Assembly: GCA_035635755.1 (NCBI GenBank) | Contig: DASQAK010000264.1 | Span: 1 to 35,852, forward strand | DNA: 35,852 nucleotides | Source of the DNA: Candidatus Methylomirabilota bacterium | Lineage (GTDB): Bacteria > Methylomirabilota > Methylomirabilia > Rokubacteriales > CSP1-6 | Direction: 5' to 3' | Shown here: positions 3,828 to 8,308 of the stretch, in pieces | Layout of the letters: every line of letters begins with the position of its first letter | How positions within the stretch are numbered: position 1 is the stretch's first letter | Notes under the pieces: generated by a model | What the model was told of the DNA's origin: nothing | What the model saw: the letters and a program-made list of their open reading frames with translations, nothing else | Databases searched by the model: none | Made by a program: the position numbers and the translations under genes

Positions 3828-5054
3828 TTACCCCTTGACGCAGACGACCTGACGAAGCGTGTGCACGATCTCCACGAGGTCCTTCTGTGCCTCCATCACC
3901 GCGTCGATGGACTTGTAGGCTCCCGGCGTTTCGTCGATGACATCCGGATCCTTCCGGCACTCGATGCCCGCCGTCGCCTCCACGTGATCGGCCACCGAGA
4001 AGCGTCGCCTGGCCTCGGTGCGCGACATGGCCCGCCCCGCCCCGTGGCTGCAGCTGTGGAAGCTTTCCGGGTTGCCCTTCCCGCGCACGATGTACGACCG
4101 CGCCCCCATGCTGCCCGGAACGATCCCGAGATCGCCCTCGCGGGCTCTCACCGCCCCCTTGCGCGTGAGGAGCACGTTCTTGCCGTAGTGAAACTCCCGC
4201 GCCACGTAGTTGTGGTGGCAGTTCACGGCCTCCACGCCCGCCGCGAAGGGCGGAAGGCCGGGCACGGAGCCCACGGCGGCCACGATGGCGCTCATCATCA
4301 GGCGGCGGTTGGTCATGGCGAAGCTCTGGGCCCACTCCACCGCCTCCACGTACTCCTTGAAGTGGTCGGTCCCCTCCGGCAGATATGCCAAGTCCTCGTC
4401 CGGCAGGTTGATCATCCACTTGCGCATGTCCTTCTTCGCCAGCTCGATGAAGTAGCTGCCGATCTTGTTTCCCACACCGCGCGACCCGCTGTGCAGGAGG
4501 AACCACACGCGCTCGCCCTCGTCGAGACAGACCTCGATGAAGTGATTGCCCGTGCCGAGGGTGCCCAGGTGGGTCTGATGGTTCGAGTGCCCCACCGCGG
4601 CGTGCTTGGCCACGATGGCGTCGAAGCGGGGCTTCAATCCGCTCCAGGCCTCCACGGCCGGCGGGGGCGGCGTGTGCCACGAGCCCTTGTCGCGGCCCCG
4701 GGGCGTACGGCCGTGCGGCACCGCGGCTTCGATGGCGGAGCGCACCCCGCGCAGGCTCTCGGGCAGATCGCTCGCCGTCAGGGTCGTCTGCATCGCCATC
4801 ATGCCGCAGCCGATGTCCACGCCCACCGCGGCCGGGATGATGGCGCCCACCGTGGGGATGACGCTGCCCACGGTGGCCCCGATGCCCCAATGCACATCGG
4901 GCATGGCCGCCACCCACTGATGGATGAACGGCATGCGCGCGACGTTGGCGAGCTGCTTGGCCGCGGCCTCCTCGATGGGGACGCCGCGCGTCCAGGCCTT
5001 GATGGGGACGCCGCCCTCGGGGTGAATCACGTCGTACGAGCGCTCACTGGACAT
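3828..5054 (-). CDS. rtcB: RNA-splicing ligase RtcB (3'-phosphate/5'-OH RNA ligase).
   Basis: MSSERSYDV...MPFIHQWVAAMPDVHWGIGATVGSVIPT...GVDIGCGM matches RtcB family signatures. GAGGGAGA SD precedes the internal ATG at 5054. Track ORF 3828..5069. Confidence 0.9.
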   Translation of the reverse strand: MSSERSYDVIHPEGGVPIKAWTRGVPIEEAAAKQLANVARMPFIHQWVAAMPDVHWGIGATVGSVIPTVGAIIPAAVGVDIGCGMMAMQTTLTASDLPESLRGVRSAIEAAVPHGRTPRGRDKGSWHTPPPPAVEAWSGLKPRFDAIVAKHAAVGHSNHQTHLGTLGTGNHFIEVCLDEGERVWFLLHSGSRGVGNKIGSYFIELAKKDMRKWMINLPDEDLAYLPEGTDHFKEYVEAVEWAQSFAMTNRRLMMSAIVAAVGSVPGLPPFAAGVEAVNCHHNYVAREFHYGKNVLLTRKGAVRAREGDLGIVPGSMGARSYIVRGKGNPESFHSCSHGAGRAMSRTEARRRFSVADHVEATAGIECRKDPDVIDETPGAYKSIDAVMEAQKDLVEIVHTLRQVVCVKG

Positions 5055-5859
5055 GGTCGTCTCCCTCAATGTGAGTCGGCTCCGGGCCGGCCGGCTCCCC
5101 TCGACGCCCTTGCGATTCGCGGTCGAGGGGCAGCACCGAGCCCGGCAGGCCGAGCACGATCGTATTCTTTCCGTTGGCGACCGCCTGCAGCGTCTTCATG
5201 GTCAGGAGCGCCGGATTCCCCTCGAGCATGCGGGCCGCGTTCGCGAGCTGGCGAAGCGAGGCCGTTTCCCCGCGCGCGCGCTCGAGCGCCGCCTCCGATG
5301 CCTTCCGGGCTTCCACGACCTGGGCGAAGATCTGCTTGAGCGGAGTCGGGAACGTCACGTCCTTGATCCCCACGGTTTCCAGCTCGAGCCCGAGGACGGC
5401 CGCCTTGGCCTCGAGTCCCGCGCGCAGCTGGGCGGCCAGCTCGCCCCGTCGCTCCAGCAGGGTCTCCACGGCCACCGTGGACACGAGGTCGCGCAGTACG
5501 AGCTGCGCCTCCAGGTACAGCGTGTCCGCGAACGACTGCACCAGCTCCGTCGCCACCTCGGGACGGACGACCCGGTAGCGCAGGGCGAGAGTGATCCGCA
5601 GGGCGACGTTGTCGGCCGACAGGATCTCCTGGCCCGCCACCACCGCGAGCCGCGAGCGGACATCGACGATCTGCACGGCGGCGAAGGGCCGCCACATCCA
5701 GTGCAGCCCCGCGTCGAGCGTCCGGGACAGCCGGCCCGCGCGATAGAGAAGCCCCTTCTGGTAATCGTAGATCACGATCCTGAGGATCACGAAGCGGTTC
5801 AGCACCAGGATCATGGGCACGCCTACGGCCACGATCGCCAGCATGTCGGTCAGTGTCAT
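5044..5859 (-). CDS. SPFH/band-7 (stomatin/prohibitin-like) membrane protein; first gene of the rtcBA operon.
   Basis: N-terminal TM helix (MTLTDMLAIVAVGVPMILVL) followed by an SPFH-like core and a coiled-coil tail. AGGAGA SD 6 nt upstream of ATG at 5859. Its 3' end overlaps the rtcB start by 11 nt. Confidence 0.75.
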   Translation of the reverse strand: MTLTDMLAIVAVGVPMILVLNRFVILRIVIYDYQKGLLYRAGRLSRTLDAGLHWMWRPFAAVQIVDVRSRLAVVAGQEILSADNVALRITLALRYRVVRPEVATELVQSFADTLYLEAQLVLRDLVSTVAVETLLERRGELAAQLRAGLEAKAAVLGLELETVGIKDVTFPTPLKQIFAQVVEARKASEAALERARGETASLRQLANAARMLEGNPALLTMKTLQAVANGKNTIVLGLPGSVLPLDRESQGRRGEPAGPEPTHIEGDDHVQ

Positions 5860-5974
5860 TGCGCATCTCCTCATTTGTAAGGACCCCTGCCCGACGGGCC
5901 CGCCTCTGGCGGGGAGATCGAAGATCTCCTCAAGGCCAGGGCAGCGGAGAGGCTTGCGCCTCCGATGCCCGCGG

Positions 5975-6150
5975 GGCAGGGGGATCGGGGATTCGAACCC
6001 CTTTTACGGAGGCGGCCGGGCCGAGCGTGGAACGTCGCCCGGACGAATCGCCGGACTCGCCACCGAGCCCGACCGCTGATTGCCCATGTTCCTTCCAGGG
6101 GGGTCACGGCCCCGCTTCGCCGTGACCCCCCACGCTCCTTGCCGACTAGG
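5975..6150 (-). ncRNA. Highly structured 5' leader of the sigma54-driven SPFH-rtcB-rtcA transcript, containing a tRNA T-arm mimic (GGGG-UUCGAAU-CCCC). Possible tRNA-like or Y-RNA-like regulatory RNA module.
   Basis: Minus-strand RNA carries a perfect 12-bp GC hairpin (6089-6122), a canonical T-stem-loop GGGGUUCGAAUCCCC (5987-6001) and a GGAGAUC-UUCG-GAUCUCC tetraloop hairpin (5923-5939). It sits between the predicted sigma54 promoter and the first CDS. Confidence 0.3.
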
Positions 6151-6159
6151 CATCCATAG

Positions 6160-6176
6160 AGCACGAGCCGTGCCTC
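6160..6176 (-). promoter_or_regulatory. Candidate sigma54 (-24/-12) promoter of the rtc operon.
   Basis: Minus-strand AGGCACGGCTCGTGCT versus consensus TGGCACG-N4-TTGCW. GG and GC have the correct 12-nt register. It lies between rtcR and the operon and is oriented toward SPFH-rtcBA. Confidence 0.5.
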
Positions 6177-6297: not shown

Positions 6298-7884
6298 ATG
6301 CGAACGGTGGTGATCGGATTCCTTGGAACGACTCTCGACCGCGGTGGCCAGAACCGCTGGGATCCGTGGCGACCCTCGGTGGATCTGTGCCGTCACGAGG
6401 ACCTGGTGGTCGGGCGCTTCGAACTGCTGAGCCAGGTCCGGTCCCGGGGGCTCGCCAACGAAGTCACCGCCGACATCCTGTCGGTCTCGCCGGAGACCGA
6501 GGTTCGAACCCACGACCTCGAATTCAGGGACCCCTGGGACTTCGAGGAAGTGTACGGGGCGCTCCTCGATTTCGCCCGGGCCTATCCCTTCAAACCGGAC
6601 GAAGAGAGCCACCTCGTCCACATGACCACGGGCACGCATGTCGCGCAGATCTGTCTCTTCCTGCTTGCCGAGTCACGAGAAATTCCCGGGCGGCTCATCC
6701 AGACGTCTCCGCCCCCCCGGCGCCGCGGCGTGGAGCCGGGCACGTACGCGATCATCGACCTCGACCTGTCCAAGTACGACCGGCTGGCCTCGCGATTCCA
6801 GGCGCGGCATCGCGAGGACCTCTCGTATCTCAAGTCCGGCATCGACACTCGCAACGCCGGGTTCAACAGGCTCATCGAGCGGATCGAGCAGGTGGCCATC
6901 GCCTCACAGTCGCCCCTGCTCCTCATGGGCCCGACGGGCGCGGGCAAGGCGCAGCTCGCGCGACGGATCTACGAGCTGAGGAAGGCCCGCCGCCAGGTGG
7001 AAGGCGCCTTCGTTGAGGTCAACTGCGCCACCTTGCGCGGGGATGCCGCGATGTCCGCCCTCTTCGGGCACGTCAAGGGCGCGTTCACGGGCGCCCTGCA
7101 GCCTCGCCCCGGTCTCTTGCGCACCGCCGATAAGGGCATCCTCTTCCTGGAAGAGATCGCAGAGCTGGGCTCCGACGAGCAGGCCATGCTCCTGCACGCG
7201 CTGGAGGAGAAGCGATTCCTGCCCATGGGCACGGACCGCGAGGTGCACAGCGACTTTCAGCTGATCGCAGGAACGAACCGGGATCTGGGCGAGGCCGTCC
7301 GGGCTGGCCGTTTTCGTGACGACCTGTTCTCCCGCATCAACCTGTGGACGTTTCGCCTGCCCGGCTTGCAGGAGCGCGTCGAGGACCTCGAGCCGAATCT
7401 CGAGTACGAGCTCGACCAGTGGGCCGTCCAGCAGGGCCGCCGCATCACCTTCAACAAGGAGGCCCGCGAGGCCTTCCTGCGCTTCGCGACCTCGCCCGAC
7501 GCTCTGTGGACGGCGAACTTCCGCGACTTCAACGCGGCCATCGTGCGGATGGCGACGCTGGCCGCGGGCGGGCGCATCACCACCGAGATCGTGCGGGACG
7601 AGATCGCCCGGCTCAAGGCTCTCTGGGAACCCGCGAGCGCCGGGACGACCGATGACGCGCTGAGCCGCTTCGTCGATGCCGCCAAGCTGGCGGAGCTCGA
7701 TCACTTCGACAGGGTCCAGCTCGCCGAGGTCCTGCGCGTGTGCGCGCGGTCGCGAAGCCTTTCCGATGCCGGTCGTGCCCTCTTCTCCGTGTCCCGGCAC
7801 CGCCGCTCGACCACCAACGACGCCGACCGGCTGCGCAAGTATCTGGCCCGGTTCGGGCTGGCCTGGCAGGATACTCAAGCCTGA
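6298..7884 (+). CDS. rtcR: Sigma54-dependent transcriptional activator RtcR (CARF-like N-domain + AAA+ with GAFTGA + C-terminal HTH region).
   Basis: 528 aa. Walker A GPTGAGKAQLARRIY. GAFTGA motif (GHVKGAFTGALQ). N-terminus MRTVVIGFLGTTLDRGGQNRWDPWRP resembles E. coli RtcR. Divergent from rtcBA. Confidence 0.9.
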   Translation: MRTVVIGFLGTTLDRGGQNRWDPWRPSVDLCRHEDLVVGRFELLSQVRSRGLANEVTADILSVSPETEVRTHDLEFRDPWDFEEVYGALLDFARAYPFKPDEESHLVHMTTGTHVAQICLFLLAESREIPGRLIQTSPPPRRRGVEPGTYAIIDLDLSKYDRLASRFQARHREDLSYLKSGIDTRNAGFNRLIERIEQVAIASQSPLLLMGPTGAGKAQLARRIYELRKARRQVEGAFVEVNCATLRGDAAMSALFGHVKGAFTGALQPRPGLLRTADKGILFLEEIAELGSDEQAMLLHALEEKRFLPMGTDREVHSDFQLIAGTNRDLGEAVRAGRFRDDLFSRINLWTFRLPGLQERVEDLEPNLEYELDQWAVQQGRRITFNKEAREAFLRFATSPDALWTANFRDFNAAIVRMATLAAGGRITTEIVRDEIARLKALWEPASAGTTDDALSRFVDAAKLAELDHFDRVQLAEVLRVCARSRSLSDAGRALFSVSRHRRSTTNDADRLRKYLARFGLAWQDTQA

Positions 7885-7885
7885 G

Positions 7886-8308
7886 CTACAGGAAGGCTCT
7901 CTCCAGTGAAGTCACGAACTGAACGCCCGGAACAATCTTCTGACTCAGACGTTCGTCGTTCGTGATGAAGAGATCAACTCGGGCTTGGGAGGCACAGGCG
8001 AGCTGGATGGCGTCAGGCGGGCGGATGGCACGATCAATTCGGATCGCCGCGTAGACCCCTGCTGCGGATCGATCGAACGGAACAATCGTTGCACCGGTGA
8101 CGATGGCCTGCTCGTATGTCTCACGGAGTGTGTCATCTTGCATCTCGATCGGTCTAACGAGTACCTCCCCCAGTGTCAGGGTCGAGGTATAGAGTTGGTC
8201 TCCACGGACGAGCATGCGCTCGCGAAGCCGCGTCACGCGGTCTGCACGTTCTCCTGAGCCCTCGATGAGATAGATGAAGAGGTTTGTATCCCAGAAGACG
8301 CGGCTCAT
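7886..8308 (-). CDS. PIN-domain ribonuclease toxin (VapC-like).
   Basis: 140 aa. Conserved acidic residues in VFWDTN, GEV, PPDAIQ and FITND contexts. ATGA start/stop overlap with the upstream gene. Locus GC ~50%. Confidence 0.85.
   Translation of the reverse strand: MSRVFWDTNLFIYLIEGSGERADRVTRLRERMLVRGDQLYTSTLTLGEVLVRPIEMQDDTLRETYEQAIVTGATIVPFDRSAAGVYAAIRIDRAIRPPDAIQLACASQARVDLFITNDERLSQKIVPGVQFVTSLERAFL

Follow-up and report, generated by a model that had tools for sequence, protein, structure and literature searches.

The window analyzed here is the whole 35,852-nt stretch of contig DASQAK010000264.1 (assembly GCA_035635755.1), part of a Methylomirabilota metagenome-assembled genome, and the element in question is a structured RNA with a tRNA-type T-arm, encoded on the minus strand (6076-5884) in the leader of a sigma54/RtcR-driven RNA-repair operon of the order slipin(Band_7)-rtcB-rtcA. 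The first gene encodes a slipin of the SPFH type (5859-5044; Pfam Band_7, 7.6e-28) with a hydrophobic N-terminus, whose score does not reach the HflK cut-offs. An identical 271-residue protein on a near-identical Methylomirabilota contig is annotated at NCBI as a "slipin family protein" and starts at the same ATG. It is followed by rtcB (about 5069-3828; Pfam RtcB, 5.8e-127) and rtcA (3823-2765; Pfam RTC, 2.6e-77). All three genes lie on the minus strand, divergent from the plus-strand gene rtcR (6298-7884), the product of which combines a CARF-type RtcR domain (Pfam RtcR, 1.6e-79) with a sigma54-interaction domain (Sigma54_activat, 1.8e-46). A tblastn search with the Rsr protein gave no Rsr gene in the 35.8-kb window, in line with an earlier sequence-only reading of this DNA.

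The promoter region contains a sigma54-type -24/-12 element (GGCACG-N4-GTGC, 6174-6161, minus strand), read from the sequence and directed away from rtcR. An equivalent GGCACG-N4-NTGC is found at the same place in every relative examined. From this element we infer a transcription start near 6150, so that 5875-6160 would represent a leader of ~290 nt for the slipin-rtcB-rtcA operon, followed by a Shine-Dalgarno (SD) sequence GAGGAG (5872-5867) and the slipin start codon ATG (5859-5857), both read from the sequence of the minus strand. The leader length given by the sequence-only reading is consistent with the positions of the -24/-12 element and of the slipin ATG at 5859.

The minus-strand leader is organized into four parts. 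Hairpin 1 (6131-6098), near the 5' end of the transcript, is a perfect 13-bp GC stem (GGGGGGUCACGGC / GCCGUGACCCCCC) with an 8-nt loop; it had been described before as a 12-bp hairpin at 6089-6122, which is one base pair short and 9 nt away. In domain 2 (6076-6012), stem S1 (6076-6067 paired with 6021-6012) encloses the long hairpin P2 (6063-6027) together with an internal loop. A linker, CUCCGUAAAA (6011-6002), leads to the T-arm GGGG-UUCGAAU-CCCC (GGGGUUCGAAUCCCC, 6001-5987), which had been reported exactly, in sequence, position and strand. According to the RNAalifold consensus, domain 3 (5982-5884) is formed by a long stem P3 that closes a three-way junction, with the hairpin P3a (5963-5948) as one arm and, as the other, a CUGGC/GCCAG helix that carries an internal loop and ends in an apical hairpin. 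This apical hairpin (5929-5913; GGAGAUCUUCGAUCUCC = GGAGAUC-UUC-GAUCUCC) closes a 3-nt UUC loop with 7 bp, or alternatively a CUUCG loop with 6 bp. It is the third hairpin of the sequence-only reading, which placed it 10 nt off at 5923-5939 and gave it a UUCG tetraloop that it does not have. The 3' end of the structured RNA is 22 nt before the slipin start codon, and no terminator was found between the two.

Folding of the whole leader gave -171 kcal/mol, far more stable than shuffled sequences (z = -5.7, 0/100 shuffles as stable). The T-loop core by itself is not beyond chance, since the pattern GGTTCRANTCC has one match against 0.15 expected and at least one match occurs in 15/100 shuffles as well. 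Related loci, denoted here by L numbers, were therefore compared; they comprise 80 metagenome loci and 80 genome loci gathered via RtcR, in addition to individual homologue look-ups. The full leader is common to 10 distinct relatives whose RtcR is 74-84% identical. The genome-contig collection holds no close relative of the window, its best RtcR match being 69% identical.

The consensus fold of these sequences has hairpin 1, domain 2 with a stem S1 of 8-10 bp, a linker of 9-12 nt with an invariant T-arm, and, after 4 nt, domain 3 with a 15-bp stem P3. Covariation was measured as the fraction of cells that form a standard pair, with slid registers and shuffles as controls. For domain 2 (alignment A4), 86% of the cells are paired compared to 44-54% in slid registers, with compensatory changes at 10/25 pairs and 0/500 shuffles as high. 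For the T-arm and domain 3 in a plain MAFFT alignment (A3), the values are 92.6% against 48-59%, with compensatory changes at 17/38 pairs and again 0/500 shuffles as high. A model-fitted alignment that includes two distant members (A7) raises them to 94.5% and 25/38, with 5/7 compensatory pairs in the apical helix. Part of the count thus depends on a fitted alignment, and the comparison as a whole spans only about five independent lineages. Within the T-arm, G-UUC-A-UC is invariant in 15/15 sequences, and its position is the same in all slipin-first relatives. Along with it, GGC..UG and the CC of CCGCC make up the invariant positions of the family core in these 15 sequences.

Hairpins are common in a GC-rich window such as this one, and a 97-residue open reading frame (ORF) spans the region (5871-6164), so that chance hairpins, a palindrome at the DNA level or part of a coding sequence might be invoked, as might the insignificance of the T-loop core taken alone. 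We regard such a non-functional origin as hardly credible. The folding z-score and compensatory changes in excess of both shuffled and slid controls argue against chance, and the paired cells contain 37 G-U but only 3 A-C, as would be expected of an RNA read from the minus strand rather than of a DNA palindrome. Moreover, the ORF has no Pfam match and the leaders of relatives differ through 1-, 2- and 5-nt indels, which indicates that it is not coding. As judged by comparative sequence analysis, 6076-5884 is a real conserved structured RNA, for which the covariation in related loci is decisive. The conservation thus supports the sequence-only reading in its central point, namely that the leader of an RtcR/sigma54 operon without Rsr is structured and includes a genuine tRNA-type T-arm. 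Of the three separate elements that it listed, two turn out to be parts of one larger fold, and the 13-bp hairpin is indeed separate.

Hairpin 1 is conserved with compensatory changes in all relatives and lacks a U-tract, which argues that it is not a terminator. The slipin-less operons L162, L163 and L169 retain no other leader element, and we consider hairpin 1 a separate promoter-proximal element, independent of the tRNA-like RNA and probably a 5' stabilizer. A GC hairpin resembling hairpin 1 also follows the promoter in L038 and L080.

To delineate the family, two covariance models were used, R1 for the T-arm plus domain 3 and R2 for domain 2. R2 matches only the window's own clade (66-100 bits), and distant members have other 5' domains; domain 2 was therefore rejected as a universal part of the RNA, and the conserved family core is the T-arm with the junction domain. 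R1 scores 87-119 bits on the window's clade and extends beyond it, as described below.

In its distribution, the RNA goes with the slipin gene. The close relatives that begin with the Band_7 gene (L001, L002, L006, L003, L161, L165, L166, L167 and L168) all possess the full leader. The equally close operons that begin with rtcB (L162, L163/L164 and L169) have an intergenic region of ~220 nt that retains hairpin 1 alone; in L163, hairpin 1 is directly followed by a Shine-Dalgarno sequence and the rtcB start. In these slipin-less loci, hairpin 1 is located at 4800-4860 (L162) and 4790-4830 (L163). The long leaders contain a purine-rich GGGANGG 3' of hairpin 1, and because it looks like a remnant of the Shine-Dalgarno sequence of the slipin-less operons, the arrangement suggests that the RNA and the slipin were gained or lost as a unit, by insertion or deletion of one module.

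The same association is seen outside the clade. R1 matches a Verrucomicrobiales leader (L099/L104, 52 bits) upstream of a Band_7-rtcA-rtcB operon, and an operon-internal site in L020 (38 bits) that is flanked by rsr and a Band_7 gene confirmed by Pfam. Slipin homologues of about 50% identity led to three further loci, in which R1 matches upstream of the slipin with 73 bits (L171), 70 bits (L172) and, in Chloroflexi, 23 bits (L173). None of these three has rtcR, rtcB or rtcA within the 7-8 kb shown. In L172, the RNA lies downstream of its own TTGACT-17-TATAAT promoter and stands alone with the slipin. In L171 (231-4106), the slipin and its leader RNA are neighbored by a Fic-domain gene on one side and, on the other, by an overlapping 455-residue ORF without a Pfam or NCBIfam match. 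Altogether, the RNA adjoins a Band-7 gene in the window and at least 16 related loci, and occurs in three genomic contexts, namely upstream of the first gene of an rtc operon, before an internal gene after rsr, and as a stand-alone pair. In 13/13 measurable loci, it is on the same strand as the slipin and ends 16-46 nt before the start codon. The linkage is not absolute, since the 667 nt upstream of the L170 slipin (48% identical) are free of such an RNA. With this exception, the genomic comparison indicates that the RNA tracks one slipin subfamily, rather than rtcB or rtcR.

Three other lines were followed in the search for relatives. An R1 match in L131 (30 bits) was discarded, as it falls on a Y-RNA-like element beside a YrlA-like RNA and the next ORF is not Band_7. 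A phage origin was rejected as well: a scan of viral contigs for the pattern of T-arm and domain 3 yielded 15 loci, nearly all of them tRNA genes or arrays, with R1 below 24 bits and no Band_7. In the plasmid collection, the slipin protein query found distant slipins only, at most 41% identical.

This distribution bears on the role put forward by the sequence-only reading, in which the RNA is an rtc-specific decoy or sensor, either feeding back on the CARF domain of RtcR or soaking up an anticodon nuclease or RtcB. The RNA of the window is under RtcR/sigma54 control, and the passages concerned in Hughes et al. 2020 (PMC7790460) describe the activation of RtcR by tRNA fragments and suggest YrlA's tRNA-like domain as a possible competitive inhibitor of an anticodon nuclease. 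Nevertheless, the RNA is absent from the closest slipin-less RtcR-rtcBA operons and present before slipin genes that have no rtcR, rtcB or rtcA in the 7-8 kb shown, and it has no anticodon stem-loop that could serve as a nuclease target. Its distribution makes such a role very unlikely.

Burroughs and Aravind reportedly proposed in 2016 that Rot/TROVE and SPFH/Band-7 modules act as scaffolds with cognate non-coding RNAs (ncRNAs). The pairing of Band-7 with a tRNA-related RNA in RNA-repair operons has already been predicted: the passages of bioRxiv 10.1101/312249 that deal with this RNA, b7a-tRNA, trace its prediction beside Band-7 and RtcB to Burroughs and Aravind 2016, state that it "strongly resembles an authentic tRNA", and give it as experimentally unvalidated. 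In the same passages, b7a-tRNA is treated as interchangeable with YrlA, being at times located beside Rsr, with YrlA at times beside Band-7. The operon context, which had been thought new, is therefore not new in kind. Similar to b7a-tRNA, the RNA of the window is a tRNA-related ncRNA beside Band-7/SPFH and RtcB in an RNA-repair operon, in the place taken elsewhere by Rsr and a Y RNA. It differs in having the T-arm only, with neither acceptor stem nor anticodon arm supported, in its conserved three-way junction of ~100 nt, and in its occurrence beside slipin without rtc genes.

The second known system to be compared is YrlA (RF02553; Wang et al. 2018), one of the Y RNAs, which are tRNA mimics (Chen et al. 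2014, PMC4201824). Both are T-arm tRNA mimics in an RtcR-controlled operon with a putative scaffold gene adjoining, and the T-loop consensus of YrlA is kept in the RNA of the window. However, the window has no match to RF02553, no rsr and no end stem of the Ro-binding type, and the order of the modules is different: T arm, acceptor-like stem-loop and D arm in YrlA, compared to hairpin, T arm and three-way junction here.

On the basis of genomic linkage and conserved structure, we propose, with slightly better than even confidence, that the RNA works with the slipin scaffold in the way a Y RNA works with Rsr, and is made together with the slipin message. In this model, RtcR would activate the sigma54 promoter and the RNA would be produced as the 5' part of the slipin-rtcB-rtcA transcript; elsewhere, a sigma70-type promoter would drive it together with the slipin message. 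The RNA would fold into the long hairpin S1/P2, the canonical T-arm and the three-way-junction domain closed by P3, so that the T-loop, held between two long helical domains, could present a surface like the tRNA elbow. A D-loop-like YUGGU sequence, found 5-25 nt upstream of the T-arm in 7/15 members from four lineages (L003, L005, L166, L168, L099, L020 and L172) and placed in L172 inside a small hairpin (GUGC-UGGUAA-GCAC), might contribute to this surface. RNase P, TruB, TrmA, RtcB or other tRNA-handling factors could recognize this surface. Either excised or still on the mRNA, the RNA might then be the partner of a membrane-anchored slipin oligomer, which would parallel the pairing of Y RNA and Rsr.

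Several observations weigh against this proposal. Tools that detect tRNAs do not recognize the RNA, despite the tRNA-like nature of the b7a-tRNA described: ARAGORN at default settings called 0 tRNA or tmRNA genes in the window, and Rfam at gathering score returned no family there, neither tRNA nor YrlA. The best permissive Rfam match, to tRNA-Sec, reached 19.3 bits against a threshold of 47 (E = 0.44). An acceptor-like pairing was found in 63.6% of cells, compared to 58-62% in slid registers, and 34/500 shuffles reach this value; the "anticodon" of the relaxed ARAGORN call differs in every relative; and YUGGU is absent from the linker of the window. Judged by description only, the window RNA would be a divergent and putative relative of b7a-tRNA. 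Slipins are membrane scaffolds that are not known to bind RNA. Finally, a cis-regulatory leader, too, would occupy a fixed site immediately 5' of the start codon and lack a terminator.

Other results show how far the resemblance to tRNA extends. The T-loop fits the tRNA consensus GTTCRANYC in 15/15 members. The tRNA-Sec match was rejected, as its "anticodon stem" is not conserved in the relatives and stem S1 takes that sequence. A cloverleaf closed by the acceptor stem GAGGUG/CACCUC is plausible by eye and used by relaxed ARAGORN (-ps80), but the alignment does not support it, and its apparent pairing is due to G-rich versus C-rich composition. The sequence of the would-be anticodon arm is occupied by the covarying S1/P2, and the consensus fold lacks both a D arm following the T-arm and a closing stem in which its two ends would pair. 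YrlA (RF02553) has no match in the window even at E <= 10, whereas the positive controls L008, L038, L051 and L080 are recognized at 74-78 bits. Acceptor pairing at the level of slid registers and anticodons that vary in every relative show that this is not a cloverleaf; the RNA shares with tRNA the T-arm, and perhaps the elbow. The tRNA or Y-RNA fold considered by the sequence-only reading is thus not borne out.

Genuine tRNAs do occur between the sigma54 promoter and the first gene of other RtcR operons, which brings in the possibility of a decayed tRNA gene, with the T-arm kept as a processing signal for RNase P, RNase Z or RNase E and the acceptor and anticodon arms lost. Such tRNAs are tRNA-Pro(UGG) in L080 (2122-2197), L125 (4165-4242), L137 (4174-4246), L158 (4156-4233) and L159 (4143-4220, minus strand); further minus-strand examples are three tRNAs in L131 (3959-4281), five in L071 (2905-3669), followed by Band_7, and a tRNA-Lys in L070 (868-940). 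Most of the RtcR-leader tRNAs are tRNA-Pro(UGG) in Sphingomonadales. In addition to these tRNAs, of which those in L080, L125, L137, L158, L159, L071 and L131 share the position of the window's RNA, a degenerate tRNA with an encoded CCA in L038, the D, anticodon and T arms uncalled by ARAGORN upstream of distant Band_7 genes in L101 and L124, and a weak call that relaxed ARAGORN makes in most relatives, with its end 8-12 nt past the T-arm, but at this setting not in the window, would accord with decay. However, compensatory changes in several phyla preserve about 190 nt of non-tRNA structure, namely the three-way junction and S1/P2, and such large domains exceed what a cleavage signal needs, making a mere processing remnant unlikely. 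Nor is there support for an acceptor stem, which both RNase P and RNase Z use. We therefore consider decay improbable.

These RtcR-leader tRNAs take the same position between promoter and first gene as the RNA of the window, often follow a GC hairpin and have a T-arm of the same sequence class. They differ in being full cloverleaves with ARAGORN/Rfam calls (43-66 bits) and in lying mostly before rsr. As they are inside RtcR/sigma54-controlled leaders, they would be co-induced with the repair genes. Classical-looking tRNA elements are also found near more distant Band_7 genes (L071, L082, L101 and L124), and YrlA (RF02553) lies downstream of rsr in L008, L038, L051 and L080. The presence of tRNAs, tRNA-like elements and YrlA at several loci indicates that tRNA-derived RNAs are a recurrent component of RtcR operons.

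The constant placement of the RNA before the slipin start codon, on the same strand in all three genomic contexts, together with the missing terminator, also suits a different function, a cis-regulatory slipin leader that is riboswitch-like or carries a site for a protein or tRNA, and that tunes the translation or stability of the slipin mRNA with no free ncRNA involved. Autoregulation by slipin is possibly a variant of this. Some members have a small hairpin between an anti-SD and the SD sequence; however, the anti-SD pairing amounts to 0 to -8 kcal/mol, is inconsistent and is absent in several members, so that SD sequestration was rejected as a conserved expression platform and no clear platform of another kind is apparent. 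A perfect T-loop would be unusual for a riboswitch, and no Rfam family matches. We view a purely cis-acting leader as the main alternative, though a less likely one. It is compatible with the proposed RNA partner of slipin, as the processing of a leader can yield a stable RNA as well.

It is likewise possible, though doubtful, that the RNA of T-arm and junction represents a distinct uncatalogued family serving one slipin subfamily, rather than a cofactor of RNA repair. If so, a membrane SPFH cage protein would have its own RNA mimicking the tRNA elbow, both within rtc operons and elsewhere, across several phyla, and the RNA would be either a stable ribonucleoprotein partner, in a bacterial "vault-like" pairing that parallels Rsr and Y RNA, or an autoregulatory leader sensing a tRNA-binding factor. 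The eukaryotic vault particle combines the major vault protein MVP, with its SPFH-like shoulder domain, with vault RNA and the TROVE protein TEP1. The likeness is one of analogy only, a cage or scaffold of SPFH type with a small structured RNA, parallel to TROVE with Y or vault RNA.

T-arms or T-loops outside a cloverleaf, combined with long helices, are also known from the tRNA-like domain of tmRNA, from RNase P and from the T-box. The only clan-level Rfam match of the L171 T-arm is a local tmRNA hit. The RNA of the window differs from tmRNA in that it lacks an acceptor end, a CCA and a tag reading frame, and ARAGORN called no tmRNA.

For the role of the Rsr/Y RNA and Band-7/b7a-tRNA modules in bacterial RNA-repair operons, this locus and its relatives provide a structure backed by covariation, in which a T-arm is flanked by a hairpin and a three-way junction, and a genetic rule, that the RNA accompanies slipin and not rtcB or rtcR. 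Features that appear to go beyond the description of b7a-tRNA are the non-cloverleaf architecture, the conserved three-way junction, the association with slipin outside rtc operons and the lack of an Rfam family. The family would make a sensible new Rfam entry, and the two covariance models, R1 and R2, are ready for use. Should the pairing of RNA and SPFH protein prove true, bacterial SPFH scaffolds would gain their first RNA partner. This raises the questions of whether slipin binds the RNA, whether tRNA enzymes modify or cleave the T-loop, and whether the RNA controls the expression of slipin.

Some further observations concern tRNAs and Y RNAs of the related loci. A conserved motif, CCGCCGGGCCAGCGGCGC ... 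GUUCCGNGAA.GGAUUCUGACGAAGG, lies some 60-130 nt downstream of the sigma54 promoter in four unrelated loci (L070, L071, L101 and L124), before tRNA or tRNA-like elements; Rfam scans at gathering score, which covered L070 and L071, returned no match for it. Downstream of rsr in L131 (1870-2340, minus strand) lies a YrlA-like permuted tRNA with the order of T arm, acceptor-like stem-loop and D arm. Modules of the form GAAUGC..GGGACUACA, candidates for the Ro-binding stems of Y RNAs, are repeated in this region and in L020 (2140-2235, minus strand); a weak and false R1 match fell on one of them. In L034 and L048 (124-294, minus strand) and in L082 (1186-1490, minus strand), ordinary-looking tRNAs, either Asn and Met or His and Gln, flank a more distant Band_7 gene (40-43% identical) after rtcA, which may be the "classical" b7a-tRNA situation. 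Large arrays of tRNAs are also present within a few kb of rtcR in L096 (6560-10100, 20 tRNAs), L054 (7644-9269, nine) and L094 (17-687, eight).

PIN toxins frequently cleave tRNA. In the window, a VapC-like PIN-domain gene (7886-8308, minus strand; Pfam PIN, 7e-14) abuts the 3' end of rtcR, a neighborhood that may be meaningful given this activity of PIN toxins.

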